From: Bacteroidales bacterium
GTDB taxonomy: Bacteria; Bacteroidota; Bacteroidia; Bacteroidales; VadinHA17
Direction of reading: 5' to 3'
NCBI GenBank assembly: GCA_021157415.1
Contig: JAGGWN010000001.1
Location: forward strand, 2,679-66,678
Length of the DNA: 64,000 nt
Shown here: piece by piece, positions 4,817 through 50,332 of the stretch
Position numbering within the stretch: the first letter of the stretch is position 1
How the letters are laid out: every line of letters starts with the position of its first letter
The notes under the pieces: generated by a model
Told to the model about the DNA's origin: nothing
The model's input: the letters and a program-made list of their open reading frames with translations, nothing else
Database searches by the model: none
Position numbers and translations under genes: made by a program

Positions 4817-6181
4817 TTAAGACAAACCTTTTTCCCGTATCATCACAATGGCTTTCTCTGCAGCTTTAACCAATACCGGTTTGGTAGGAGCACTGGTTAA
4901 TAAAGGATGTGTCCCTATCTGATAAGAGATCAACTCATAAACAGTAATATATTTCTGAATAGCCATACTGATAATATTAATGATTTCAGCTGCTGTGGGT
5001 CCTCCCCAGACTTCTCCTCCCAATATTATCCCGTCAGAGGGAGAAAAGACAAGTCGTACTGTTAATGGACGGGCATCAGGCAATGTCCCGGGATGTTTGT
5101 CTACATCTGTAAACTCTGCAGTCATAAAATGGACATTTGCATCTTTACCGGTATTCTCATTTACACCTGCAGATGCCATAGTAAGTCCGTTTATTTGTGT
5201 TGAAAACACAGCAATTGTCCCCAAAAAGTTTTTCTTGATGCGTATTCCGAACATATTGTATCCCAGTACACGGGCTTCCGCTGTAGCAGTTGAAGCCAGC
5301 ATAATATTGTCACTCCTGGCCGTTAAAAATCCTATGGTCTGTGAACAATCCCCCACAGCACAAACATCTTTCACGGAGGTTCGTTCATAACTATCCACTT
5401 TGATTGCCCCCTTATTATTTAATGGCAATCCGGCTTTGGCAGCCAATTCTGTATTAGGTTTATAACCCACGGAAAGAATAACCGCTTCGGCAGGAATTTC
5501 TTCACCTCCTTTGAGTTTTACTTTACTCACTTTTCCATCTTCACCAACAATCTCTTCCACGAGTGAGTCCGTTCTCACCTGCACACCCGTCTTCCTCAGT
5601 TGTTCCGTTGCTATCTTACTTAGTTTTTTTGAAAAAGCTTTGGAAAAACATTGCTCTTCGCTTTCGACTAAAATGATTTCCTTATCCGGATTTGCTGCCA
5701 ACTGTTCAGCTACCTCAGCCCCAATAAAACCGCCTCCGATAATAACAATCCTTTTTATTTCTTTTAATTTATTATATAACTCTTTTATGTATTGATAATT
5801 CTTTTTTATGTAAAAAACATTTTCCAGGTCATATCCTTTGATAAATTCGGCTTTTGCCGGCGTCGAACCGGTAGCAAAAACAAGCTTGTCATATTGATAT
5901 GTCTCACCGGATTTCCCATAAACTTCCTTCTTATTTAACTGGACACCCACCACCGGATCTTGTATGACATATCCTCCCATATCCAGGAAAGGTTTCAATC
6001 CCATAACATTTGCATCAACAGAATCCAGCTTATTAAAAACGTATGGAATACCACAAGGCACCAAACCTTTTTTTGCCTCGGTTAAGATCAACACTGATTT
6101 TTCTGAAAAATATTTTTTTACGGTAACTCCTGTCACAATACCCGCAGGACCTCCTCCAATAATTACAACATCAAATTTCAT
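4817..6181 (-). CDS. FAD-dependent pyridine nucleotide-disulfide oxidoreductase (NADH oxidase / CoA-disulfide reductase-like)
   Basis: N-terminal FAD fold DVVIIGGGPAGI, a second dinucleotide fold RIVIIGGGFIGAEVAEQLA, a single candidate redox Cys in LVPCGIPYVF, and AVGDC near the C-terminal FAD contact. Confidence 0.8.
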   Translation of the reverse strand: MKFDVVIIGGGPAGIVTGVTVKKYFSEKSVLILTEAKKGLVPCGIPYVFNKLDSVDANVMGLKPFLDMGGYVIQDPVVGVQLNKKEVYGKSGETYQYDKLVFATGSTPAKAEFIKGYDLENVFYIKKNYQYIKELYNKLKEIKRIVIIGGGFIGAEVAEQLAANPDKEIILVESEEQCFSKAFSKKLSKIATEQLRKTGVQVRTDSLVEEIVGEDGKVSKVKLKGGEEIPAEAVILSVGYKPNTELAAKAGLPLNNKGAIKVDSYERTSVKDVCAVGDCSQTIGFLTARSDNIMLASTATAEARVLGYNMFGIRIKKNFLGTIAVFSTQINGLTMASAGVNENTGKDANVHFMTAEFTDVDKHPGTLPDARPLTVRLVFSPSDGIILGGEVWGGPTAAEIINIISMAIQKYITVYELISYQIGTHPLLTSAPTKPVLVKAAEKAIVMIREKGLS

Positions 6182-6515
6182 AACACTGATATTTTACAAA
6201 ATAATTTTGAACATTTGTGCAAAATAATACTTTATTAATAATTTATTTTCTGATTTTCATCATATTTTCTGTAAAATAAAAGAAGTGTATTTACTTATCT
6301 GTCTTTTCCCTCCACATTTCCAAAACATTTTTTCTCCCCTGCCTACATGAATCAATCATCCCGTGTCCGACTACCTGCGGATTGTCCATCCCCTGGCGGA
6401 TTTTCCACCTTGTCAAGGTAACAAAAAGGCATCATTAATTTTTTTACAATCACTTTTGTTGGTATATCATTCACGTTTTTGCAAATTTGCATGCCGAAAA
6501 TAAAAACAATGAACC

Positions 6516-6938
6516 ATGAAGATAGCCATAGTCACCCTTGACGGAGAAACAGTCAGCCAGCATTTCGGACGTTCGCGGTATTATAAAATTTATACCCTCG
6601 AAGGAAATGATCCTGTAGATATGGAGATGCGTGAAAGGGGCACCGGTCATTACGCACAGGGTCAGAGCCATGATTACCAGACACACCATGAGCATACTCA
6701 TCAGCAGGGGCAGGGACACGGGTACGGCAGGGAAGCCGACAGCAAGCATGCTTCCATGGCCCGGGAGATTGCCGACTGTGATGTGCTGGTGGCCGGAGGG
6801 ATGGGCCGGGGCGCTTACGAAAGCTTTCGCAACGCCGGCCTGGAAGTGATCCTGACCGACCTGCAGGACATCAACGATGTCGTCAATGCTTATGTAAAAA
6901 GAGATTTGAAAAATCTGGCCGGGGAAAGAACGGATTAG
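6516..6938 (+). CDS. NifB/NifX-type (dinitrogenase FeMo-cofactor biosynthesis-like) domain protein with a His/Gln-rich insert
   Basis: MKIAIVTLDGETVSQHFGRSRYYKIY and DVLVAGGMGRGAYESFRNAGLEV match the small NifX/NifB-C fold. An insert HYAQGQSHDYQTHHEHTHQQGQGHGYG lies between them. Confidence 0.7.
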   Translation: MKIAIVTLDGETVSQHFGRSRYYKIYTLEGNDPVDMEMRERGTGHYAQGQSHDYQTHHEHTHQQGQGHGYGREADSKHASMAREIADCDVLVAGGMGRGAYESFRNAGLEVILTDLQDINDVVNAYVKRDLKNLAGERTD

Positions 6939-6969
6939 GGAAAATGGCCGTTGCATGTTGATCGTTAAA

Positions 6970-7030
6970 CGGCAATCAAACCCAAATGCCGCAATGGTTT
7001 TTTTTCTAAATCTCTATAGCGCAACCCGGG
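6970..7030 (+). repeat. Dispersed intergenic mosaic element, short copy (X hairpin plus the 3' end of Z)
   Basis: CGGCA-ATCAAACCCAAA-TGCCG hairpin followed by AAATCTCTATAGCGCAACCCGGG. Compare 11486..11520 and 11661..11683. Confidence 0.6.
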
Positions 7031-7082
7031 AGAAACATGCTATAACATATCTTAACTTCTTGCACCCTGTACCTTGCACCTT

Positions 7083-7682
7083 TCATTTCGCTTTCCGGGA
7101 AATATAACGGCCCACCAAAAGACTGATCGCAATGACTGCGAACAGCAGAAAGGCAGCAAGGAGTCCCTGGTTTATATCTCCCAGTCTGCTCATTAGTCTT
7201 TTGATCCCGTCGAAGAAAAAGATTCCCATTGGATAAAAGACCGAGATAAACAATGCCATGGAGATGCTCTGTAAAAGCAGAAAGCGATGAACTTTTACCC
7301 GGGCCATTCCGGCGGCCAGCGGCACCAGGATCCTCAGCTTGGGAACGAAGGTCAGTATAAACACGGTTTTTGCCAGATTTTCCGTCATCTGCCGCTGATA
7401 AGTCCCCATCCAGACAGGATATTTTTCACTCAGCCATCCGATCAGCCGGGTACGGTTGCGGGAAAGATAAAACAGGATAATATTCCGTGTGTACAAGGCC
7501 AGAAAAGAAACAATCCCTCCGGCCCAGAGGTTCATCAGACCGCTGTGTGCCAGAGAAGCAATGATGATCAGGGACAATTCATCGGAGATGGGAGAGACAA
7601 AATCAAAAATGATGTAATAGAAGGCGATACCCAGGTAAGTATAACCCGTCACGATGTTGTATAATTCGGTATGTTCAACCAT
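7083..7682 (-). CDS. DedA/VTT (SNARE-associated) family inner-membrane protein
   Basis: About 200 aa with multiple hydrophobic helices. The length and pattern (FVPKLRILVPLAAGMARV) are typical of DedA-family proteins. Confidence 0.6.
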   Translation of the reverse strand: MVEHTELYNIVTGYTYLGIAFYYIIFDFVSPISDELSLIIIASLAHSGLMNLWAGGIVSFLALYTRNIILFYLSRNRTRLIGWLSEKYPVWMGTYQRQMTENLAKTVFILTFVPKLRILVPLAAGMARVKVHRFLLLQSISMALFISVFYPMGIFFFDGIKRLMSRLGDINQGLLAAFLLFAVIAISLLVGRYISRKAK

Positions 7683-7879
7683 TCCGGATCAGTTTTATTC
7701 AGGCTGGATCTTTCTCCCGGCCAACACATACTGGCTGCTCGTCTCCGGCGAAAATACGGCTTTTTTTCTTTTTTCTCAAAAAACATGAAACTTCCGTGCC
7801 ACGGATCCCGACGACGGCTTTTTTTCACCGGAATATTGTATTATTTTTACATCTGCCAATCAACCATATTATATCCGTT

Positions 7880-9257: not shown

Positions 9258-9338
9258 CGTCACTCCATTTCTCAGTCTCTCAGTCTCTACTCTCACTACT
9301 CACTTCTGCCTTCTCATTTCTCATTTCTCATTTCTCCC
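9258..9338. repeat. Short degenerate 8-nt-period array (TCTCAGTC x2, TTCTCATT x3; reverse complement is purine-rich GAGTGA/GAAATGAG)
   Basis: Read directly: GTCACTCCATTTCTCAGTCTCTCAGTCTCTACTCTCACTACTCACTTCTGCCTTCTCATTTCTCATTTCTCATTTCTCCC. The reverse complement contains ATGGAGTGAC, the unit of the large array at 62127..62614. Confidence 0.7.
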
Positions 9339-11239
9339 TTGATTCCTCCCGTAATCCAAACCCCCGGAGCTGGTAGGTTGCCGATGTCCACATAGGAGGT
9401 ATTGAACAAATTGGAAACATCAAGGAACAGTTGCATTTTCCACACATGACAGGAAAAACGAACGTTGGTCAGGAGATAAGGTTTGTAAGGAGTAATTTCT
9501 CCTGACGGATAAGTCTGATAACTGCCGGCCCGGTCACGAAGCACGAACTGCCAGAAAGCTTCAACATGCCCGGGCAAGGTATGTTTCACATCCAGTATCA
9601 CCTGATGATGTAAATAATCCATGGCATATTTCGACAGGTACGTCTCGTGGTGTTTGGATGCGGTGGCAAAAGCCCATGCCAGGCGGACTTCTTCCAGCCA
9701 CAGCCTGTCCCTGCCAGTCATATGCCGTACATTCAAACGTGCCGAAAGCTCAAAACCGGATGTTGTCAGGGAGGTATGGTTCATGGTATGCCACTGTACG
9801 GAATCGGCCTGGCGTACCCAGTCGATCAGGTCTTTTCCTTTCCGGACAAAGACGCCGGCCGATCCCGACCAGGCTTTTCCTCGATGCCGCCCGCCGGCCT
9901 CCAGCGTCAAAGCCTCTTCGGGCTTTAGATGGGGATTGCCCTTATTCACCGGGCTGTGATAATACAGGTCGGTAAATGTAGGATAACGTAGCGACCGGTT
10001 AGCCGCTGTATAAATTCTCCAGTTTGTCCCTATCCGGTAACCCACGTCCAGGCCCCCGTACATTTTCCAGTTGTAGTCGCCGGTACGATTCAGGAGAAAG
10101 CCACCGTTTGCAGCAAAACGACGGATCACCACCTGTTGTTCCACAAAGGCCGAAAGGATGTTCCTGTATTTTCTGTGGTCGTACCACACACCTGCTACCC
10201 CGGGAACAGTCACGGAGTCGGCTGTTTTCTCTCCCAGTACCGTACTCAGGATGTCTTCCCTCCGTAGTTCCAGACCCACATTGGTCCGGCCGAACGATTC
10301 CGGCAGGATCATTTTCATCTCTGTCCCGGCCACACCGGTGCGGTGATAGTTGTGCTTTTTATACCAGGCCGGAGCATCATAACGAAACAACCGGAACTCA
10401 TCATGTGCCCTGCGCCAATACACAGACTGTTGATACCTCACCTTCCGCCCTGTTGTGGTAAAGCGCACAGCTGCCAGAGCGGTACTGAATTTTTCATACT
10501 GATCCGGAAAAGCCGGCGAATAGAAGCCATTAGCTCCAAAGCCTTTGTCCAGCCATCCGGCCAGGACATCCACCGAGGAGCGGGAAGTACGGTATTGACC
10601 TCTGAAAAACAGCCGGGAGATCCCGAAATCGGTATTGTCCCGGTAGCCGTTGGCAGCGGTGTGACCCACATCAATCATGGCCCGGAATTTTCCGGCATGC
10701 AAGCCTCCGCTCGCTCCGGCATGGTAATAGCCATATTGCCCGACGGCCACTTCCGCCCCCACATATGAGGTATCCGGCAATCGAGTGATCAGGTTCACGG
10801 CTCCGGCAAAAGCATCCGGTCCCAGCACACGGGAAGCACCTCCTTTAAGGACTTCCACACGCTTTATGGAGCTCAGGGGCAGGGGCAGATTGAAATTATG
10901 GTGACCGGTTTGCGGATCACTGATTTTTACCCCATCCACCATCACCAACACCTGGTCGAAGGTTCCGCCACGTATGGACACATCCGCCTGTACCCCTACC
11001 GGTCCACGTTGCCGTACATCCACACCGGGCACGTCCATCAACAGCTTATGCAGTGATGACACAGGCATCATCCGGATGGTCCCGGCCGGGATCAACGTCA
11101 TCTGCCGGTTGACATCAGATCGTCTCACAGGCGAACGTTCTGCCGTCACAATCACCTCTTCGAGACGGAGGGTATCCTGCCGGGCCCTGGCCGAAAGTGA
11201 AAAAATCAATACGATCGAAATCAAAAAGTACAGTCTCAT
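9314..11239 (-). CDS. TonB-dependent receptor (small, about 640 aa; substrate unknown)
   Basis: The ATG at 11239 gives the signal peptide MRLYFLISIVLIFSLSARA. Plug-domain strings: EEVIVTAERSP, DVSIRGG, DQVLVMVDGVKISDP. A long beta-barrel region follows. Confidence 0.85.
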   Translation of the reverse strand: MRLYFLISIVLIFSLSARARQDTLRLEEVIVTAERSPVRRSDVNRQMTLIPAGTIRMMPVSSLHKLLMDVPGVDVRQRGPVGVQADVSIRGGTFDQVLVMVDGVKISDPQTGHHNFNLPLPLSSIKRVEVLKGGASRVLGPDAFAGAVNLITRLPDTSYVGAEVAVGQYGYYHAGASGGLHAGKFRAMIDVGHTAANGYRDNTDFGISRLFFRGQYRTSRSSVDVLAGWLDKGFGANGFYSPAFPDQYEKFSTALAAVRFTTTGRKVRYQQSVYWRRAHDEFRLFRYDAPAWYKKHNYHRTGVAGTEMKMILPESFGRTNVGLELRREDILSTVLGEKTADSVTVPGVAGVWYDHRKYRNILSAFVEQQVVIRRFAANGGFLLNRTGDYNWKMYGGLDVGYRIGTNWRIYTAANRSLRYPTFTDLYYHSPVNKGNPHLKPEEALTLEAGGRHRGKAWSGSAGVFVRKGKDLIDWVRQADSVQWHTMNHTSLTTSGFELSARLNVRHMTGRDRLWLEEVRLAWAFATASKHHETYLSKYAMDYLHHQVILDVKHTLPGHVEAFWQFVLRDRAGSYQTYPSGEITPYKPYLLTNVRFSCHVWKMQLFLDVSNLFNTSYVDIGNLPAPGVWITGGIKGEMRNEK

Positions 11240-11332
11240 CGGTTCATGAAATAACCCCGCAAAAATAGGGAAATAATTCCTTTCCCCGTCACCCTGCAAG
11301 GAAACAGGAAATGAACAAACCATCCTATTTTA

Positions 11333-11354
11333 TCTACGTAGGCGCCTACGTAGG
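11333..11354. promoter_or_regulatory. Tandem palindrome TCTACGTAGG-CG-CCTACGTAGG (candidate operator), about 95 bp upstream of the TonB-dependent receptor start
   Basis: CCTACGTAGG is a perfect 10-bp palindrome and two copies are adjacent. The same arrangement, with the same ATTTTA 5' flank, recurs at 46327..46348. Confidence 0.5.
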
Positions 11355-11485: not shown

Positions 11486-13736
<2,251 letters not shown>

Positions 13737-40942: not shown

Positions 40943-42028
40943 TCATTTTTTTTCCCGGATCCTGTTAAAGCGGAGGGCTTTCAACAGCCAGGAAGGCAGG
41001 TTTTTTTCCGGATTTTTCTTTCGTAAATTAATATACCAGCCCAGCTTTTTTATGACCGGAATTTTGTGTGTCTCCACAAATTCGATAAGGGTCCCGTCGG
41101 GGTCTTCCACATACGAAAAATATCCGGCAGCTTCGCCCATGTCAAAGCTATGGTTTTCGTGTGCCCGTTGGCTGTCCACGGTAAAAGGATACCCTTTTTC
41201 TTCGCATTTTTGCCGGAGGGTATCCATGCCGTTAATATCGAAACAAAGATGGATAAAACCAAGGTCGCCCCAATATCTTCCGTGAAATATTTTCTGTGGT
41301 TTCCGGGATTTTGCCTGTACCAACTCCAACTCGCTGGGTCCGAAAACCCGGCTGAAAACACCCAGAGGTCCCGAGCTCTTTTGCAATAACATTCTGCGTA
41401 CCGGTTTATCTCCGCCGGGCAGATAAGAAAAATCCTCAAACACTCCTTCCTGGTCATAAACCACGATGTCATAACCCAGGATATCCCGGTAGAACTCCAG
41501 TGATTTTTCCATATCCGACACGCCAATCACAGCACCATAGGCTGCGCCGGTAGGTTTTTTCTTTTCCCGTCGGAACCATCCTGTCCCGGGCACTATCTGG
41601 AAACAATTTCCAAAAGGATCCTTCATAAAAAAGACATCATTTCCGAGCGGATCTTTCGTTATCGACCCGGGAAGATCCCCGTCCATTTTTTTGAAATGAT
41701 CATAAGCGGCTGCAATGTCACGGCTTTTGATCTTGACGGAAAATATACCCAGATCTCCCAGCATAAGGGGTTTTTCCGGGGGTTTAGGGACACGGTCTTT
41801 GTACTGCCATATCTCAAATCCACCGCCCCCCTGCAGGTTCAATGCCAATGCAGCATGGCGCTTGCGCGGTTTACCTCCGGTATAGGGAAGCATCAGTTCG
41901 GCCGTAGCCTCATCTTCAAAGATCCGCACATCCACCCCGAAGAACCTGCGGTACCAGGCCCAGGCTTCTTTCAGATCCTTAACGCCTATACCCACTTGTT
42001 GTATCCCGCCAAAAATAATTTTTCTCAC
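40943..42028 (-). CDS. VOC (glyoxalase/bleomycin-resistance/dioxygenase) superfamily protein, tandem domains
   Basis: Two repeats of the beta-alpha-beta-beta-beta module pattern (GIGVKDLKEAWAWY..., VIGVSDMEKSLEFYRDILGYD...) and a basic C-terminal tail. Confidence 0.6.
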   Translation of the reverse strand: MRKIIFGGIQQVGIGVKDLKEAWAWYRRFFGVDVRIFEDEATAELMLPYTGGKPRKRHAALALNLQGGGGFEIWQYKDRVPKPPEKPLMLGDLGIFSVKIKSRDIAAAYDHFKKMDGDLPGSITKDPLGNDVFFMKDPFGNCFQIVPGTGWFRREKKKPTGAAYGAVIGVSDMEKSLEFYRDILGYDIVVYDQEGVFEDFSYLPGGDKPVRRMLLQKSSGPLGVFSRVFGPSELELVQAKSRKPQKIFHGRYWGDLGFIHLCFDINGMDTLRQKCEEKGYPFTVDSQRAHENHSFDMGEAAGYFSYVEDPDGTLIEFVETHKIPVIKKLGWYINLRKKNPEKNLPSWLLKALRFNRIREKK

Positions 42029-42048
42029 AATAACTTGTATTTTCTAAA

Positions 42049-42849
42049 TTAAACAGGACTCACTCTACCGGCTATCTTAAAAAACAAGCCGGGAAAATAT
42101 TTTTTAAGGTAAACGGACCAGGAGTCTGCATTTCCTATTATAATTTCTCTCTTTCTCCGGGCCACACCCTTAAGGATCTTACTTACTGCTTTCTCTACCG
42201 ATATCCCTTTGGCCTGGCCAGGATCCATTTTCCCGTATTTCTCTCCCGTAGCCGTCAGGGCATTGATAGAAACATCCGTAACGATATGCCCCGGGATCAA
42301 AAGAGTAACGGCAATATGGCTATTCTTTTCTTCTACCATCAAAGTTTCAAAAAAGCCGTGTAAAGCATGCTTGGAAGCTGCATAGGCCGATCTCATAGGG
42401 AAACCGAACTTCCCGACAATACTGCTGGTAACCACGATATGCCCGCCCCCATTCCGGATCATCCCGGGAAGAACCGCTTTGGTCAGGGCCACCGCACCGA
42501 AATAATTAACATCCATGATTTTCCGGTCCACCTCAAGACCTGTATCCCGCACAAGCCCTCGCTGACTGATACCGGCATTGTTAAAAAGATAATCCAACCG
42601 CGGAATGGTTTTCAGCACTTTCTCAGCAACATTTTTTACCGCTTGTTCGTCCGATACATCCAGAGGGAAGATCAGACAATGATCTTCATCCAGTCCGGAA
42701 ATTTTCTTCACCTCCTCAAGTTTTTCGACATTGCGGGAGGAAAGCACCAGGGAAGCCTCCGCCGAAGCCAGCGCCAAAGCAAGGCCTTTTCCTATACCGG
42801 ACGAAGCACCCGTAATCCAAACCCATTTGCCGGAAAATACATCTTTCAT
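42049..42849 (-). CDS. Short-chain dehydrogenase/reductase (SDR)
   Basis: Cofactor motif ITGASSGIGKGLA, NNAG, and catalytic YAASKHAL. Confidence 0.9.
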   Translation of the reverse strand: MKDVFSGKWVWITGASSGIGKGLALALASAEASLVLSSRNVEKLEEVKKISGLDEDHCLIFPLDVSDEQAVKNVAEKVLKTIPRLDYLFNNAGISQRGLVRDTGLEVDRKIMDVNYFGAVALTKAVLPGMIRNGGGHIVVTSSIVGKFGFPMRSAYAASKHALHGFFETLMVEEKNSHIAVTLLIPGHIVTDVSINALTATGEKYGKMDPGQAKGISVEKAVSKILKGVARRKREIIIGNADSWSVYLKKYFPGLFFKIAGRVSPV

Positions 42850-42910: not shown

Positions 42911-42938
42911 CCGTCTTGTTTTCACAAGACCGTTTTTT
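42911..42938. terminator. Possible bidirectional terminator between the OLD-like gene and the SDR gene
   Basis: GTCTTG-TTTTCA-CAAGAC stem (6 bp, extendable) with T6 on the + strand. T-rich runs follow on the - strand after an 11-nt spacer. The stem is weak. Confidence 0.3.
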
Positions 42939-42973: not shown

Positions 42974-45310
42974 TCAGGCCTGAAGCCTTTCCACGATCGC
43001 CTGAAAAACATTTTCAATATTCTCCCGTGTTTCTTCATCAAAATCGGTAATTTTCATTTCCTGAATTGATTTCAGAAAATCAGAGGCCAGGAGCGTTCTG
43101 GATAGTTTGTTGTCACGTACAAAATCAGAATTGGATTCCGGAATGCCTATACGCTGATGAAGGACATGTTTCTTAAAGTCCAGGGTCGAAAACAGATCTT
43201 CCACGCCCTGAAACCCATCCATCAGGATTACTTTCTCACGGATTTTATTATCATTATTGCCGTAAACATTTTTTTTCAGATCCTGATAGGTTTTCAAGCC
43301 CTCGGGACTTTCGTCGGTAACAACGATAAAATCCAGTCCCCAACCCATCAACAGGTTCACCAGGGTTTGGACATTGGACACATCTGTGGCGGGCAGGAAG
43401 AATGCTTCGGGCGGATATCCCAGCAAGGCATGGAAAGCACTGAAGTAATAATAATTGGTAAGATCTTCGAGGATAATATTGTTTTTTTTCTGGATAAACT
43501 GTTGTTCCGACAATCGCGAGCCCATGAGGGTATAGATGGGAGACAACGTATCGGCCGAAGCCGAAGTGAGTGACTTGGCGTCAAAGACCACGGTTTCGCT
43601 GTTCTCATCATCATGGATATTGCGCTGTACCGCCAGAAGACGGTAGAGTTTTTTGATATCTATCAGATGCGGGGAATGGGTGGTATAGATCACCTGCACC
43701 TTGTCCTTGATGTGCTCAAAGACTTTCAGCACATCCTCCTGGGCCCGGGCATGAAGGCTCAGTCCCGGCTCGTCGATTAACAACACCTTCCCTTTGAAGT
43801 CCTTACGGGATATCGCTGCTTTTAGCTCCAGATAAAAAGAAAGAAACCAGCGCACGCCCCGGCTGCGTTGTTTGGGATAAAGACGCTCCTGCCGGTCTTT
43901 TACCCAGAACTCCAGGTATGGAAAACCACTCTTGTCAGGATGGGTATTATCATAATGTTCCAGTTCAAAATTGATGGTGATCTTATTGTGACGGCCGATA
44001 CGCTGTTGCCAGAAATCCTGAAAATCCAGGGTCAGGTCGCGATTCAGTTTCTCGATTTTCTGTTTCAGGATACGGCTGTTACTCTCTCTGAAGAATGCTT
44101 CATTCAGACCGGCTACTTCCAAAAAATTACGGGCAGCCTTATATCCTTCGATAGCTGCGTTTCCGTTCAGGATATCGTCCAGGTCGATCCGGTTGGGCAA
44201 CAGGCTGCTGAAATCTTCGAACATCACGAATTCAGGGATGTGCTCCACAATCAGGCTACCCGCTTCAAGGCGTGTATAAAAAGGATTAATATGGGGTTTC
44301 TCCCGTTCTGTTTCTTTTTCAGCGGCTGCGGGTGGAAGGCCTTCCAGTATCTTATAGGCCAGAAGACGGCGTTTGATCGCCCGTTCACGTGTCTGTTCAT
44401 ACTCCTTGAGGAGTTTCATATACCGGTCATTCACCCCATCCATCTCCAGTTGGATAGCACGTCTTTCTTTTTCGGACAATGCATGATCATACAATCGCTG
44501 CAGGTTGGTCAACCTTCCAAAGACTTCGTTTTGTTCTCTTTGTATCTCCTCAAATTCACGCCAGGCTTCCTTACTCATCTCGGCATAACGGGCTTCCCCG
44601 GCCACGGTTTGCACGGCCTTATTCAGTTTCTGTACCTCCTGGCTTTTCTCATTCAGCAGGTTTTTTATCTCATTGACTTTGTTTTTTGCGGCAGCCAACT
44701 GATTCTGGAGTTTCTTTTTCTCCTCGGCATCTTTTTTCCCTTTTACCTTCAACGAACGGCTTATCTCATTCACCGTAGCCTTGGCATCATTCAGTCTGGT
44801 TTCTATCCCGAGTCTTTCGTTTTCCGCCTGTTGAAAAGAGGCAATCACATCTTTCTTTTTCTGTAAAATCCTATTGATGGCCTCTTCTATCCTGTCATTT
44901 TTGGCGATTACCCCCTCATCATGCTTATTAAACAGAGCCACCACTTTTTCTCCGCCCAGCAGGATCCGCGAAGAGAGGTCTTCATTCCATTCCCGTTCCA
45001 GGCTAACGGATTTATCTGTCCGGATCTGTTCTATCACGCCGGCCGGCAGCAACTTCTCTTTCAGGATGTCTGTTATTTCGTTGTCATCATCAACACTGAA
45101 AAGACAGGATACCACAGGCATGCTCAGATCGCTTCGTAAGGTATCTTCTGATATCTTTCCGTCATAAAAGCTGCTTAAGGCTTCGAGAATAGATGTTTTA
45201 CCCGACTCATTCTGTCCGATCAATCCCGTGATATCATCCGAAGAGAGACTGTGCCAACCGGTATCGATGATCGACCTGAAATTTCGTATCCTGAAAGCCA
45301 AAAGTTTCAT
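42974..45310 (-). CDS. OLD-family-like ABC ATPase (AAA_15-type) with a long coiled-coil insert and a C-terminal Toprim-like domain
   Basis: N-terminus MKLLAFRIRNFRSI...GLIGQNESGKTSILEAL (Walker A). A heptad-rich charged segment of about 200 aa (residues about 130-330). Signature-like SRGVRWFLSFYLEL, Walker B/D-loop LLIDEPGLSLH, H-loop YTTHSPHLI. The C-terminal NIILEDLTNYYYF ... DFIVVTDESPEG resembles the Toprim E ... DxD pattern. Confidence 0.75.
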   Translation of the reverse strand: MKLLAFRIRNFRSIIDTGWHSLSSDDITGLIGQNESGKTSILEALSSFYDGKISEDTLRSDLSMPVVSCLFSVDDDNEITDILKEKLLPAGVIEQIRTDKSVSLEREWNEDLSSRILLGGEKVVALFNKHDEGVIAKNDRIEEAINRILQKKKDVIASFQQAENERLGIETRLNDAKATVNEISRSLKVKGKKDAEEKKKLQNQLAAAKNKVNEIKNLLNEKSQEVQKLNKAVQTVAGEARYAEMSKEAWREFEEIQREQNEVFGRLTNLQRLYDHALSEKERRAIQLEMDGVNDRYMKLLKEYEQTRERAIKRRLLAYKILEGLPPAAAEKETEREKPHINPFYTRLEAGSLIVEHIPEFVMFEDFSSLLPNRIDLDDILNGNAAIEGYKAARNFLEVAGLNEAFFRESNSRILKQKIEKLNRDLTLDFQDFWQQRIGRHNKITINFELEHYDNTHPDKSGFPYLEFWVKDRQERLYPKQRSRGVRWFLSFYLELKAAISRKDFKGKVLLIDEPGLSLHARAQEDVLKVFEHIKDKVQVIYTTHSPHLIDIKKLYRLLAVQRNIHDDENSETVVFDAKSLTSASADTLSPIYTLMGSRLSEQQFIQKKNNIILEDLTNYYYFSAFHALLGYPPEAFFLPATDVSNVQTLVNLLMGWGLDFIVVTDESPEGLKTYQDLKKNVYGNNDNKIREKVILMDGFQGVEDLFSTLDFKKHVLHQRIGIPESNSDFVRDNKLSRTLLASDFLKSIQEMKITDFDEETRENIENVFQAIVERLQA

Positions 45311-45372
45311 GCGTCCAATTTACAATTTTTTTCTATGTTTTGTAATCCATTCCTACAATGTGTATCCGGGCA

Positions 45373-46197
45373 TTAAGGGATTTTTATTCCCATCACCAGG
45401 ATATCATCCACCTGGATAAACTCCCCTTTCCATTTCTCGAAAGTCTCCAGCAGGATTTTCTTTTGGGATTTCATGGGTAAACGGGCAATTTTCAGCAGCA
45501 ACGTTCGGAAAGGGTCGAACTTAAATTTTTTCCCTTCGGATCCTCCGAACTGGTCAACATATCCATCCGTAAACAGATAGAGGGTATCATTTTTTTTCAG
45601 TTCCACATACTGATTGGTAAAGGGTTGTTCTTCAATACCGCTCACTCCGATAGGCATACGATCGGGTTTGTATTCTATCACCACCTCCCCGCGGATGATA
45701 TAGATGGGATGGTTGGCGCCCGCATATTGGAGGATCATTTTTTCCTGATCATAAATACAAAGGGATATATCCATCCCGTCCAGGGCTTCGGTGCTGTCGC
45801 CGGTCTGGTGGAGGGCTTTCATGACCATCTCACGCAACAGGTTCAGGATACGATTGGCAGGCAGGTTGTCGTGCATGGTCACGATCTCGTTCAGGAAAGA
45901 AATTCCCAGAATGCTCATTAGCGCACCCGGCACGCCATGTCCCGTACAATCGGCCACAGCAAAATATGCCTTGCGCCCCCGGGACACCATCCAGTAAAAA
46001 TCACCACTTACGATATTCTTCGGAAGATACAATACAAAATTCCGGGGAAACACTTTGTCTATCAGCTTTTTTTGAGGCAATAAGGAAGTCTGTATCAGAC
46101 TGGCATACTGTATGCTTTCTATGATCTCATTCCTCTGGCGGGTGATCTCGTCCCGCTGTCGCTCCATCTCTTCCCGTAACTCTTCTCTTTTTACCAT
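45373..46197 (-). CDS. PP2C-family (SpoIIE-type) serine/threonine phosphatase with only a short coiled-coil N-terminus
   Basis: SIQYASLIQTSLLP, SGDFYW, ADCTGHGVPGALMS, LYLFTDGYVDQFGG. The track start at 46227 is TTG. The ATG at 46197 gives MVKREELREEMERQRDEI. Confidence 0.85.
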   Translation of the reverse strand: MVKREELREEMERQRDEITRQRNEIIESIQYASLIQTSLLPQKKLIDKVFPRNFVLYLPKNIVSGDFYWMVSRGRKAYFAVADCTGHGVPGALMSILGISFLNEIVTMHDNLPANRILNLLREMVMKALHQTGDSTEALDGMDISLCIYDQEKMILQYAGANHPIYIIRGEVVIEYKPDRMPIGVSGIEEQPFTNQYVELKKNDTLYLFTDGYVDQFGGSEGKKFKFDPFRTLLLKIARLPMKSQKKILLETFEKWKGEFIQVDDILVMGIKIP

Positions 46198-46326
46198 AAC
46201 GCTTTTGTTGCAGCGTAAAATTAACAAATAAATAGAATAAAGAAAACAGTCGGAAAGAGGTGTTTAACAGATCTTGACACTTTAGACCATATTATCAACA
46301 CTCTATCTGATCTTTACAATTTTACA

Positions 46327-46348
46327 CCTACGTAGCTCCCTACGTAGG
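46327..46348. promoter_or_regulatory. Tandem palindrome CCTACGTAG-CTC-CCTACGTAGG (candidate operator), 130-150 bp upstream of the PP2C gene
   Basis: Second occurrence of the motif seen at 11333..11354, again preceded by ATTTTA. Confidence 0.5.
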
Positions 46349-46462
46349 CCATCTCAATGCATAACGCAGACCAGGGAATGCCCCGGGTTCTTTTTGACCA
46401 CAGCCTGGATTCAGCCTGGATTGGCAGGTTTCATTTTCCGAAAGGAAGCCACCGGCATGCTA

Positions 46463-48085: not shown

Positions 48086-48130
48086 AATCAATGTCTGAAA
48101 AAATTTGCAAACTCCCTCAAAAATAATTTA

Positions 48131-48320
48131 CCTTTGTTGCGGCGAAGGTATCCATCGGCATTTTCTGCCGGCGGATAAGAGGGAATCAGGTGAGAAACCT
48201 GGACAGTACCCGCTGCTGTGATCTCCGGAAAGGTTTCCGGGCAATCCGGCCACTGCCTGTTTATTCAGAGGTGGGAAGGCGCCCGGAAATGGAGTAAGTC
48301 AGAAGACCTGCCTTGGCTGC
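48131..48320 (+). promoter_or_regulatory. Cobalamin (adenosylcobalamin-type) riboswitch
   Basis: Conserved core strings are all present and in order: AAGAGGGAATCAGGTGAGAAACCTGG, ACAGTACCCGCTGCTGTGA, GGCCACTG, GGGAAGGC and the B12 box AGTCAGAAGACCTGCC. It lies 45 bp upstream of a TonB-dependent receptor. Confidence 0.9.
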
Positions 48321-48364
48321 GACATTAAGTGAAATGTTCGGGATAAACATGTAACTTAAGTACA

Positions 48365-50332
48365 ATGAAAAAAGCAGGTTTATTTTTTTTGGTTTTTTCT
48401 TTTCTTCTCCCGGCGCAGGTTTTTCATGTCCTGGCTTCCGAGCCTGATACGCTTGTAAACATTGCCGGTGTCAGGGTATATGCCCGGCGTTCGTTATACT
48501 ATCAGGAAGATAAGAAGGTGATCGCCTGTGACTCTGCTTTGGTACTTCCCACAGGGTTGGAGTCGCTTGGGGAAGTACTGCAACGGATGGCCCCGGTCAA
48601 TCTGATGCAGTATGGGGGTGGGGGCTCGCTGGTCTCCCTGTCTTTGCGGGGCAGCAGTTCGGCACAGACCCAGGTTAACTGGAACGGTTTTCCGATCAAC
48701 TCGCTAACCTCGGGCATTGCCGACCTTTCTCAGCTCAGTGCCGGTATGTTCGAAGAGATCCTGCTGATACCCGGTGCTTCCGGATCGCTGTATGGCAGCG
48801 GCACTTTCGGAGGCGTCCTCAACCTGGACAACCGATTTGTCTGGGAAAAAAGATTCGTGACCACCGCCGGTCTTGACGCAGGCAGTTTCGGCACCCGTGG
48901 AGGCACGGTGGTGCTGGAAGGAGGCACGGAAAAAGTCCAAAGTAAATCGGGATTCTTCCTGCAGCAGGCCATCAACGATTTTCCCTACCGCGATGATTAC
49001 AAACCGGGCACGCCGGAAGAGACCTCCCTGCACAACTGTTTTCACTACGCCGGTTTCATTGAGACGGTCTCATTCCGTCTGTCCCATGGGATATCCCTAC
49101 AGGCAGGCTTCTGGTACCAGAAAAAAAGAAAAGAGATTCCGGCAGTCATGGGATCTTATCAGCCTAACTTTCAAGAACAAAGAGACAGCAGCATGCGTGT
49201 TTATCTGATCCTCGGCAAGCGGTGGCAACGCTCAGTGTTGACGCTGCGGGGTGCCTGGTTCCTCGACAACATGTGGTTTACCGACAAGACCTCCATCGAC
49301 GCTCCGGCATACTCGCTGGACTCCCGTTTCCGCACCAATCATTTTATGTCGGATGTATATTACCGTCGTCGGGCAGGAAAGCACTGGACGCTGGACGGCG
49401 GTGTTGCCTCGTCTGCCACCGCCGCCACCGTGACGGCATACGGGAGCACCATTCATGATTACAGCATCGATTTGTTTGCCGGCACCAGGTATCGCCACCA
49501 CCGCTGGACCGGGAGCCTGACGGTACGTCAGAACTTTAACCCTGCCAGCCATCCTTTGCCCCAGGCAGATGCCGGGATCAGATATGCACTCCGTCCCGGC
49601 AGAACGTTCCTGCGTTTCAATGTCTCCACCAAATACCGGCTGCCGACCCTGAACGACAAATACTGGAGCCCGGGCGGCAATCCGGTTTTGCTGCCCGAGC
49701 ACGGATGGGGAATAACCGCAGGCCTGGACCTGCAGACAGACCACTCCGGCACCGGACCCTCCCCGAGGACGCTACGCTGGCAAACCGACCTGTTCTCCAA
49801 TGTACTGAACGATCAGATCAGGTGGATCCCCGGCGAAGGATACTGGCAGCCGGAAAATGTGGACAAAGTATGGACCTACGGGGTGGAAAACAACCTGCAA
49901 GGCACTTGGAAAAAGAAATATCTGACCGTTACCTGCCAACTGAACTACGATTTTACGATCTCAGCGGTTTTGGCAGAAAACGGGCTGAAGCAGGCTCATC
50001 ATCAAAACACTTATATCCCGGTTCATACGGCCTCGGGCATCTTTCGTCTGGATTACAGGTTCCTTTATACAGGCATTTACGAAAGTTTTACCGGAGCCAG
50101 GTTCACTACTCCGGATCATGATCCTTTATACAGGCTGGATCCTTATGCACTCACCGACCTGGTAGCCGGTGGCAGAAAAACCAAAGGTTCCTGGGGGGTT
50201 GACCTGCGCTTCACGATCAGGAACCTCTTCAATACCCACTACCAGGTGATCCGTTCTTATCCTATGCCGGGCAGGGCTTATTTTCTGAAAGCCAGGGTCA
50301 CTTTTAAAACAAACAAATCCCATCACAAATAA
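48365..50332 (+). CDS. btuB: TonB-dependent corrinoid receptor (BtuB-like)
   Basis: Signal peptide, plug strings (VRVYARRS, LSLRGSSSAQTQVNWNGFPINS), barrel, and a position directly behind the cobalamin riboswitch. The barrel-terminal ...ARVTF is followed by 8 extra residues, KTNKSHHK. Confidence 0.8.
   Translation: MKKAGLFFLVFSFLLPAQVFHVLASEPDTLVNIAGVRVYARRSLYYQEDKKVIACDSALVLPTGLESLGEVLQRMAPVNLMQYGGGGSLVSLSLRGSSSAQTQVNWNGFPINSLTSGIADLSQLSAGMFEEILLIPGASGSLYGSGTFGGVLNLDNRFVWEKRFVTTAGLDAGSFGTRGGTVVLEGGTEKVQSKSGFFLQQAINDFPYRDDYKPGTPEETSLHNCFHYAGFIETVSFRLSHGISLQAGFWYQKKRKEIPAVMGSYQPNFQEQRDSSMRVYLILGKRWQRSVLTLRGAWFLDNMWFTDKTSIDAPAYSLDSRFRTNHFMSDVYYRRRAGKHWTLDGGVASSATAATVTAYGSTIHDYSIDLFAGTRYRHHRWTGSLTVRQNFNPASHPLPQADAGIRYALRPGRTFLRFNVSTKYRLPTLNDKYWSPGGNPVLLPEHGWGITAGLDLQTDHSGTGPSPRTLRWQTDLFSNVLNDQIRWIPGEGYWQPENVDKVWTYGVENNLQGTWKKKYLTVTCQLNYDFTISAVLAENGLKQAHHQNTYIPVHTASGIFRLDYRFLYTGIYESFTGARFTTPDHDPLYRLDPYALTDLVAGGRKTKGSWGVDLRFTIRNLFNTHYQVIRSYPMPGRAYFLKARVTFKTNKSHHK

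Follow-up and report, generated by a model that had tools for sequence, protein, structure and literature searches.

Bacterial OLD proteins are known solely as nuclease-based anti-phage effectors, and the classes of this superfamily are now sorted by partner: none in class 1 (phage P2 Old; the OLD protein of Thermus scotoductus, Ts OLD), a helicase in class 2 (Gabija), a retron in class 3 and a split Toprim in class 4 (PARIS). Phosphatases of the RsbU/RsbP type, for their part, become active through a partner protein. Here, we analyze an operon that joins proteins of these two kinds. It lies on the minus strand of a 64,000-nucleotide (nt) stretch of contig JAGGWN010000001.1 from a Bacteroidales bacterium, referred to below as the window, and encodes a sensor-less PP2C phosphatase of 274 amino acids (aa) and, 3' of it, a 778-aa OLD-like ABC ATPase. 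An earlier note on this DNA had put the pair forward as a candidate defense module. We arrive at a different reading, to which we assign a probability of roughly 0.45: the pair would represent a branch of the OLD superfamily that is linked to a PP2C and has not been described before, is inherited vertically in environmental Bacteroidales/Bacteroidota, and has an ATPase that serves as sensor or regulator, a PP2C that provides the output and a nuclease on its way to being vestigial.

The PP2C-ATPase operon and its conservation

Both open reading frames (ORFs) are present as the earlier note described them, on the minus strand and 62 bp apart, apart from the start of the phosphatase gene. The operon comprises the following.

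42974..45310, minus strand: OLD-superfamily protein (by sequence and predicted fold) of 778 aa, with an ABC head, a coiled-coil insert, a Toprim domain and, at the C terminus, a helical domain
45311..45372, minus strand: intergenic spacer of 62 bp between PP2C and ATPase, with no terminator-like site on that strand
45373..46197, minus strand: SpoIIE/RsbU/SiaA-type PP2C of 274 aa, with a linker helix at the N terminus (about residues 1-45) ahead of a catalytic domain

As first called, the PP2C ORF spanned 45373..46227 (minus strand). The TTG start at 46227 would add 10 codons, for which the homologs give no support. Most likely, translation begins at the ATG at 46197 (MVKREEL...), because homologs are 272-278 aa long and align from there. 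Of the earlier description, the ORF and its SpoIIE domain thus stand and the start most likely does not. Since the minus-strand spacer lacks a terminator-like site, PP2C and ATPase form an operon, the G+C content of which (0.45-0.47) is the same as that of its surroundings.

The pair recurs, as the earlier note had suggested a survey of gene neighborhoods might reveal. A scan with the ATPase against one genome per GTDB species yielded relatives in 523 species, and the best 80 that were examined came nearly all from metagenome-assembled genomes (MAGs) of Bacteroidales/Bacteroidota. Full-length homologs are numerous (772-784 aa, 43-95% identical). In 75 of the 77 distinct loci having upstream sequence, a PP2C gene lies immediately upstream on the same strand, with a spacer of 10-280 bp (75 loci). 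When flanking ORFs were clustered over 81 distinct related loci plus the window, only the PP2C and the ATPase were common to all loci; a third component did not emerge, as no kinase, STAS protein or other gene occurred in more than 18 of these loci. Starting reciprocally from PP2C homologs, the ATPase was found downstream in three of three cases. The pairing is retained even at 38% ATPase identity, in a long form with a degenerate DxD motif, and pairwise identities of PP2C and ATPase correlate with an r of 0.93 (61 loci). Together, these comparisons show that PP2C and ATPase truly belong to one tightly co-conserved unit of two genes.

A few loci deviate from this arrangement. Two encode a full-length ATPase without an upstream PP2C (L060, 8001-10319; L066, 4902-7229); a divergent gene of unknown function abuts, and both ATPases carry a canonical Toprim motif (VED...LDDD). 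L047 (4679-7161) has an intact PP2C, but the ATPase downstream of it is in two pieces, ORFs of 307 and 507 aa, owing either to a frameshift or pseudogene or to an assembly error. L179 (5001-8440) encodes a 780-aa long form, 38-39% identical and with a canonical Toprim, in what is apparently a non-Bacteroidota context without PP2C; a response-regulator receiver gene 400 bp downstream may be a different partner of the long form.

The phosphatase itself is readily classified. It matches the Pfam SpoIIE family PF07228 at 2.7e-23 (83.4 bits; cut-off, 25) and the C-terminal half of SiaA (NCBIfam profile positions 392-657) at 4e-57. It is not a SiaA equivalog, scoring 194 bits against a cut-off of 700, and the N-terminal sensor/HAMP/membrane part of that profile is unmatched. 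The match to PDB entry 6k4e, annotated as a putative serine phosphatase and which we take to be the PP2C domain of SiaA, has an E-value of 1.5e-35. The catalytic motifs are intact, with the metal-binding aspartates D66, D83, D140, D211, D264 and D265 invariant among 18 homologs. In relatives that are 53-54% identical, the same linker helix is preceded by Y_Y_Y propeller and transmembrane sensor regions, so the label "sensor-less" that the earlier note had given to this protein, which consists of linker helix and catalytic domain only, is accurate. From this comparison, the 274-aa PP2C appears to have lost the sensor domains that are found in its closest paralogs. It matches no model of PADLOC-DB v2. 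Two related loci also contain, at a distance of a few kb, a second PP2C paralog that is 40-45% identical (L079, 10768-11537, minus strand; L005, 9991-10737, plus strand).

Fold of the ATPase and state of its Toprim site

An exhaustive profile search placed the long form as a branch of a larger family consisting mostly of proteins of about 570-650 aa that lack the long coiled coil. These short relatives stand alone, in mobile contexts (a phage contig, plasmids, beside a serine recombinase). Plasmid-borne examples from Lactococcus, Bacillus and Hymenobacter lie next to a recombinase, an insertion sequence (IS) element or a (Lamassu-like) nuclease gene. On the phage contig (L088, about 6000-7866; IMGVR_UViG_3300026272_000019), a stand-alone relative of about 615 aa, 37% identical, has a canonical LLEE...LDDD Toprim and no long coiled coil. 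It sits among apparent structural genes (identified by eye, without annotation) of this high-GC phage contig, and it looks like a phage-carried OLD-type defense gene. For conservation analysis, we compared 168 distinct PP2C-linked sequences with 99 stand-alone short (about 600-aa) relatives. Counts out of 168 in the following list of ATPase features refer to the first set; helices and strands are those of the AlphaFold2 (AF2) model.

45194..45217, minus strand: Walker A motif GQNESGKT, residues 32-39, present in 166/168 members, the other two being gapped there
44291..44950, minus strand: coiled-coil insert, residues 121-340, about 215 aa, with AF2 helices at 121-188, 195-275 and 280-322
43751..43783, minus strand: Walker B motif and catalytic Glu, LLIDEPGLSLH, residues 510-520, with a signature-like QRSRGVRWF and an H-loop TTHSPH nearby
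43151..43630, minus strand: linker and Toprim domain, residues 561-720, with strands b1 (611-614), b2 (637-640), b3 (661-665) and b4 (694-696)
43463..43468, minus strand: Toprim site E615/D616
43307..43315, minus strand: Toprim DxD position (D-E-S here)
43196..43201, minus strand: Toprim site E704/D705
42977..43150, minus strand: C-terminal helical domain, residues 721-778, resembling the C-terminal helical domain of class 2 OLD proteins

The sequence of the ATPase matches Pfam AAA_15 at 1.3e-27 (97.8 bits; cut-off, 32.1) and also AAA_21. Among PADLOC profiles, AriA scores best (2.3e-26), and Old (1e-19), ATPase-Toprim, PtuA and GajA also match; the AriA match is limited to residues 413-550, the C-terminal half of the head, and the GajA models match at only about 1e-10, via the P-loop regions. 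The best sequence match in the PDB is Ts OLD (6p74, 1e-6), and this HMMER alignment runs through the Toprim region. The AF2 model, with a predicted local distance difference test (pLDDT) score of 81.8, has four parts: an ABC head, the coiled-coil insert, a four-stranded Toprim-type domain and a helical tail. In a Foldseek search with the whole model, GajA (8u7i and 8x5i, with 8u7i_A at 2.4e-11) and Ts OLD 6p74 ranked above the heads of SMC, Rad50 and RecN, in line with the OLD-like protein with coiled coil and Toprim that the earlier note had recognized. By sequence and modeled fold, the 778-aa protein is thus a member of the OLD superfamily. An alternative placement in a housekeeping RecN/SMC family, which the note had named as an outcome that would speak against its proposal, was rejected: all models stayed below their cut-offs (SMC_N, 35.4 versus 40; RecN, 19.9 versus 408; RecF, 24 versus 172; Rad50, 23.6 versus 700), and in the fold search GajA and OLD outranked the SMC heads.

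The ATPase motifs are intact. D513, E514, S483 and G485 are invariant in 168/168 sequences, and residue 545 is His in 167, with one gap. The coiled-coil insert keeps its length and is the most variable part in sequence, with a mean pairwise identity of 26% versus 72% in the following half of the head. It is much longer than the corresponding insert of Ts OLD, and the protein has in it the helical insert expected of an OLD protein, for which dimerization is the predicted role. The C-terminal Toprim was not called by Pfam; its assignment is supported by the 6p74 alignment, by the four-strand, alternating-helix topology of the model and by a fold search with the isolated domain. The top five matches in that search were OLD-family Toprim-bearing regions (class 2 OLD C-terminal regions and full-length Ts OLD and GajA chains) or retron Eco2, with probabilities of 0.93-1.0 and modest E-values of 2e-3 to 5e-2. 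For the C-terminal region, the best TM-score (0.56/0.60) was obtained with the C-terminal region of Burkholderia pseudomallei (Bp) OLD, 6nk8_B.

The ligands of metal A in Ts OLD are E377, D431 and D433, and those of metal B are D381, S478 and E480. Cleavage is severely impaired when these residues are mutated, with a 12- to 15-fold decrease in DNA degradation for mutants of the metal A site (E377/D431/D433) (PMC7049728). The 6p74 alignment relates this site to the window protein as follows.

Ts OLD E377: window protein E615
Ts OLD D381: window protein N619
Ts OLD D431: window protein D666
Ts OLD D433: window protein S668

The catalytic residues of an OLD Toprim are therefore incomplete in the window protein, which keeps E615 and D666 and has S668 for D433 and N619 for D381. 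Across the two sets of sequences, conservation compares as follows.

ATPase motifs: PP2C-linked, invariant (n = 168); stand-alone, K38 in 95/99 and D513, E514 and H545 in 99/99
Glu at position 615: PP2C-linked, 96%; stand-alone, 98%
Asp at position 666: PP2C-linked, 61%; stand-alone, 97%
Position 668: PP2C-linked, Asp in 60%; stand-alone, Asp or Glu in 86%

Of the 168 PP2C-linked members, 89 (53%) retain a canonical E...DxD/E, and about 40-47% have lost the DxD metal site. This clade displays 47 combinations of the motif windows 614-616 and 665-668. At position 666, the two sets differ with a Fisher p of 2.6e-12, calculated without phylogenetic correction. Erosion of DxD was seen only in the PP2C-linked clade: according to these alignments, the nuclease metal site has been relaxed among partnered members but not among the stand-alone relatives that were sampled. 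Two long forms without PP2C (P0258 and P0257) have a canonical Toprim and resemble the short forms. The earlier note's suggestion that the phosphatase might license the nuclease is weakened by this pattern, in which DxD is not conserved in the PP2C-linked clade and is conserved in the stand-alone relatives.

Inheritance and possible role of the pair

The neighbors of the pair vary between clades and are syntenic within clades, and in all annotated loci they are ordinary cellular genes. Examples are genes for SSB, RlmN, pyruvate kinase, XerD, G6PD, aminoacyl-tRNA synthetases, OmpA-like proteins, peptidases and SDR. Neither in the window nor in those related loci that are annotated did we find defense or mobile genes next to the pair, and PADLOC gave no match for nine neighboring window proteins. 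In syntenic comparisons, the pair is conserved as much as its flanks or more; between the window and L019, for instance, the pair is 83-84% and the flanks are 63-82% identical. Likewise, the PP2C-linked form is absent from IMG/VR and from the phage and plasmid collections, the relatives in which are all shorter, 27-38% identical and without PP2C. A metagenome scan based on the VOC gene downstream of the operon found the pair beside only the two closest loci (VOC identity of at least 73%). Loci with a VOC identity of at most 66% had no pair within 8 kb, but they also lacked the alternative backbone (Zn-peptidase, XerD, pyruvate kinase) and thus do not bear on gain or loss among close relatives. 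Because of the clade-wise synteny, the flank-like divergence and the absence of the paired form from phage and plasmid collections, the comparisons point to vertical inheritance of the pair and not to a mobile defense island. The same observations, together with the housekeeping nature of the syntenic flanks and the lack of PADLOC matches in the nine neighbors, give no contextual support to the defense module that the earlier note had proposed.

How might the two proteins work together? We propose that the 778-aa protein works as an active ABC ATPase, that it dimerizes, probably via its long, fast-evolving coiled-coil arm, and that it interacts physically with the sensor-less PP2C, for which it would serve in trans as sensor or regulatory subunit. 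Binding of a ligand, probably a nucleic acid or a protein, at the head or the coiled coil would lead to an ATP-dependent conformational change by which the phosphatase is switched. This logic would be like that of RsbT activating RsbU and of the AriA-AriB sensor-effector arrangement. The PP2C would be the output and would dephosphorylate either a phospho-Ser/Thr target encoded elsewhere, for instance a substrate of the partner-switching type, or its own partner, the ATPase. In stand-alone OLD relatives, the effector is the Toprim nuclease; here it would have become dispensable, its metal site decaying and the domain probably being retained as a structural or binding module. The system would have originated from a mobile stand-alone OLD-type defense gene that has since been fixed in the chromosome, and it might be triggered either by an infecting phage or by an endogenous stress on DNA or chromosome. 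Were all of this correct, the pair would provide the first link of an OLD-type sensor to Ser/Thr phospho-signaling, with a nuclease effector in the course of being replaced and with fixation as a core gene in a Bacteroidales lineage, a combination that we regard as doubtful.

Several observations sit uneasily with this proposal. Neither a substrate nor a kinase was identified in any neighborhood. The DxD comparison ignores phylogeny, and one well-sampled subclade (VED/LDDD, 66 sequences) dominates the canonical class. About half of the clade keeps the canonical DxD, and the window protein itself keeps E615, D666, E704 and D705, so that its nuclease may still work, with the PP2C regulating it. 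The cluster E615/D616/E704/D705/S708/D711/K713 is conserved, indicating that the Toprim surface is still under selection. In particular, as its acidic and Lys residues (E704, D705, S708, D711 and K713) are conserved, the Toprim domain must still be used for something; judged by the alignment, E704, D705 and S708 may correspond to metal B. Finally, the carriers are all uncultured and their genomes are MAGs, which hampers any measurement of whether the pair is core or accessory.

That the window member keeps E615, D666, E704 and D705 would also suit a classical two-gene anti-phage (abortive infection) system, in which the OLD-like protein is nuclease effector as well as sensor, with a PP2C that, through dephosphorylation, either gives it license or holds it back, or that is itself a second effector. 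All characterized bacterial OLD classes are defensive (PMC10568477; PMC12796447), and the strongest PADLOC matches are to AriA, Old, ATPase-Toprim, PtuA and GajA. Furthermore, the nearest unpaired relatives reside on a phage contig (L088), on plasmids and beside a serine recombinase, the operon architecture fits a sensor plus effector, and a coiled coil that evolves as fast as this one (26% identity) resembles a pathogen-contacting surface. A nuclease effector, however, is difficult to square with the loss of DxD in about 40-47% of members; nor does the PP2C match any PADLOC model, and there is no kinase to complete a phospho-switch. The setting is also at odds with such a system: housekeeping neighbors that are syntenic over many species and as divergent as the pair itself, no flanking defense or mobile genes in the window and annotated related loci, and no paired form in IMG/VR or the phage and plasmid collections. 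We consider this explanation unlikely, and give an anti-phage role of the pair no better odds.

Vertical, core-like inheritance and strong purifying selection could also be accommodated by a domesticated OLD-like protein with a cellular DNA or chromosome function, comparable to the archaeal OLD protein Cran1. The ATPase, Toprim and coiled coil would then be the working part, for example in DNA bridging or processing, and the PP2C would only tune it, removing a phosphate added by an unlinked kinase. The SMC/Rad50-like combination of ABC head and coiled coil would suit this, as would the persistence of the conserved acidic and Lys cluster in the Toprim; Cran1 requires its ATPase but not its nuclease activity (PMC12796447). 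Genes of DNA metabolism (SSB, XerD, DnaQ-GIY-YIG exonuclease) recur as neighbors across clades, but these are weak evidence, being on the opposite strand and clade-variable. No kinase is co-conserved, and none of the SMC, RecN and RecF models reaches its cut-off. Moreover, the loss of the PP2C sensor and the near-obligate partnership would remain unexplained, and we think this explanation improbable. The idea that two functionally unrelated, co-transcribed genes are adjacent by chance can draw on the absence of direct evidence for an interaction and on L060 and L066, which keep the ATPase without an adjacent PP2C. It does not account for a PP2C that is adjacent in 75/77 loci while every other neighbor changes, for the reciprocal result (3/3), for the correlated identities (r = 0.93) or for a pairing that persists to 38% ATPase identity, and it is effectively refuted by these conservation data, leaving it with hardly any probability.

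Surrounding DNA and relation to known systems

Around the operon, the following DNA features were noted.

46198..46462, minus strand: upstream intergenic region, presumed promoter, carrying the tandem palindrome
46328..46347, minus strand: tandem palindrome CTACGTAGG-N3-CTACGTAGG, which reads CCTACGTAGG GAG CTACGTAGG on the minus strand
42913..42930, minus strand: hairpin GTCTTGT-GAAA-ACAAGAC with a 7-bp stem, 44 nt past the stop codon and followed by A/T-rich DNA

The upstream palindrome reported by the earlier note is real and non-random, as the window contains four CTACGTAG octamers where 0.18 would be expected. Yet a second copy of the tandem, CTACGTAGG-N3-CTACGTAGG(T), is found at 11334..11353, and the element is therefore not specific to the PP2C-ATPase operon. 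This second copy lies in the intergenic region between two divergent genes, one on the minus strand for a TonB-dependent receptor (9314..11323) and one on the plus strand for the NAD-dependent DNA ligase LigA (11715..13736). Three tandem copies with a 12-bp period lie 5' of the PP2C gene in L001, L008 and L009, but L007, L005 and L019, which are the closest relatives, have none there. The position upstream of ligA had raised the idea of an SOS box and a DNA damage regulon, which was dropped because the element matches neither GGA-N5-TCC nor CTAA-N5-TTAG, the two published Bacteroidetes SOS motifs, and because the tandem is missing at the closest orthologous loci. It may be a transcription factor operator or a small dispersed repeat. 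The downstream hairpin is present and weak, as the earlier note had it. A consensus terminator scan calls it on the plus strand only, and on the gene strand the T-run begins 14 nt after the stem; we regard it as a weak terminator candidate of the operon.

The flanking genes are as previously described, GH47 upstream and SDR plus VOC/glyoxalase downstream. The SDR-VOC (glyoxalase-fold) pair (window 40943-42849, minus strand) represents an adjacency that is widespread in Bacteroidota metagenome contigs (loci L097-L176; VOC, 53-84% identical), most of which are without the PP2C-ATPase operon. Elsewhere in the window, a cobalamin riboswitch (48129-48329, plus strand; RF00174, 102.5 bits) lies directly upstream of a gene for a TonB-dependent receptor (48365..50332) and a DUF5074-like gene, with which it probably forms a B12 uptake operon.

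How does the pair relate to the OLD classes? Among solved structures, a class 1 protein is closest in sequence, Ts OLD being the best PDB sequence match and a top fold match, and the stand-alone relatives of about 600 aa look like class 1. Genes of this class stand alone in variable contexts, and the proteins keep E377, D381, D431, D433, S478 and E480. In contrast, the present gene has a near-obligate PP2C partner and clade-wise synteny, which sets it apart from class 1. Its product has a coiled coil of about 215 aa in place of the four-helix dimerization domain, with N619 for D381 and S668 for D433. Gabija GajA (class 2) is the top structural match (8u7i_A) and shares the C-terminal Toprim plus helical domain, and both systems are two-gene operons. 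However, the partner here is a PP2C instead of the UvrD-like helicase GajB, and inheritance appears vertical instead of patchy. No helicase is conserved among 80 related loci or in annotated neighbors, which separates the pair from class 2. Nor does it resemble class 3, as no reverse transcriptase occurs among the neighbors and the cobalamin riboswitch is the only Rfam match in the window; the NCBIfam retron Eco8 effector model scored 43 bits on the ATPase versus a cut-off of 250. The arrangement of PARIS (class 4) is similar in logic, in that an ABC ATPase scaffold and sensor (AriA, the best PADLOC profile) controls an effector encoded next to it (AriB). Unlike in PARIS, the Toprim is fused within the 778-aa ORF and not split off as a DUF4435 protein, a phosphatase forms the separate subunit, and phages and satellites do not carry the pair, so that class 4 does not apply either.

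Cran1, which acts in cell cycle progression in Sulfolobales, is comparable in another respect. It is an OLD-family protein that is conserved and vertical within one order and apparently non-defensive, and for which ATPase activity matters more than nuclease activity (PMC12796447). It differs in being archaeal and an active nickase; the sections consulted mention no partner gene, and no PP2C is involved (PMC12796447). The OLD dataset of that study, to the extent that it was accessible, contains none of the peptides that are hallmarks of the present family (PMC12796447).

On the phosphatase side, RsbT-RsbU, RsbQ-RsbP and SiaABC share the PP2C subfamily PF07228, the invariant catalytic Asp and the N-terminal linker helix. 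Unlike in RsbU and SiaA systems, the neighbor is an OLD-like ABC ATPase and not a kinase, hydrolase or STAS component, and the operon contains no STAS substrate or anti-sigma kinase. A defense system with a PP2C, the TerY-P triad of vWA protein TerY, PP2C and Ser/Thr kinase, was reportedly described by Gao et al. in 2020. A PP2C is also listed in a candidate defense system (Payne et al. 2024). Unlike TerY-P, the PP2C studied here has no kinase or vWA partner, and its lack of PADLOC matches extends to any TerY-P or PDC phosphatase model in that database. That the pairing of OLD and PP2C is undescribed, as the earlier note held, is consistent with the absence of this PP2C from PADLOC-DB v2 and with a search of the accessible literature, which turned up no system of OLD and PP2C/SpoIIE proteins, although the ABC ATPase classification of Krishnan et al. 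2020 may mention one.

In conclusion, the PP2C-partnered coiled-coil clade has the architecture of the OLD superfamily, keeps part of the catalytic Toprim residues and agrees with the partner arrangement of none of classes 1 to 4. If our reading of the ATPase as sensor and the PP2C as output is correct, this clade of about 500 species would add an OLD class with a different output chemistry and, together with archaeal Cran1, support the domestication of OLD sensors for cellular roles. It would also offer a testable case of effector replacement and a possible account of how a sensor-less RsbU-type phosphatase is controlled. Should the pair prove to be merely a lineage-specific regulator, the automatic annotation of this family as "OLD endonuclease/defense" would still be corrected.

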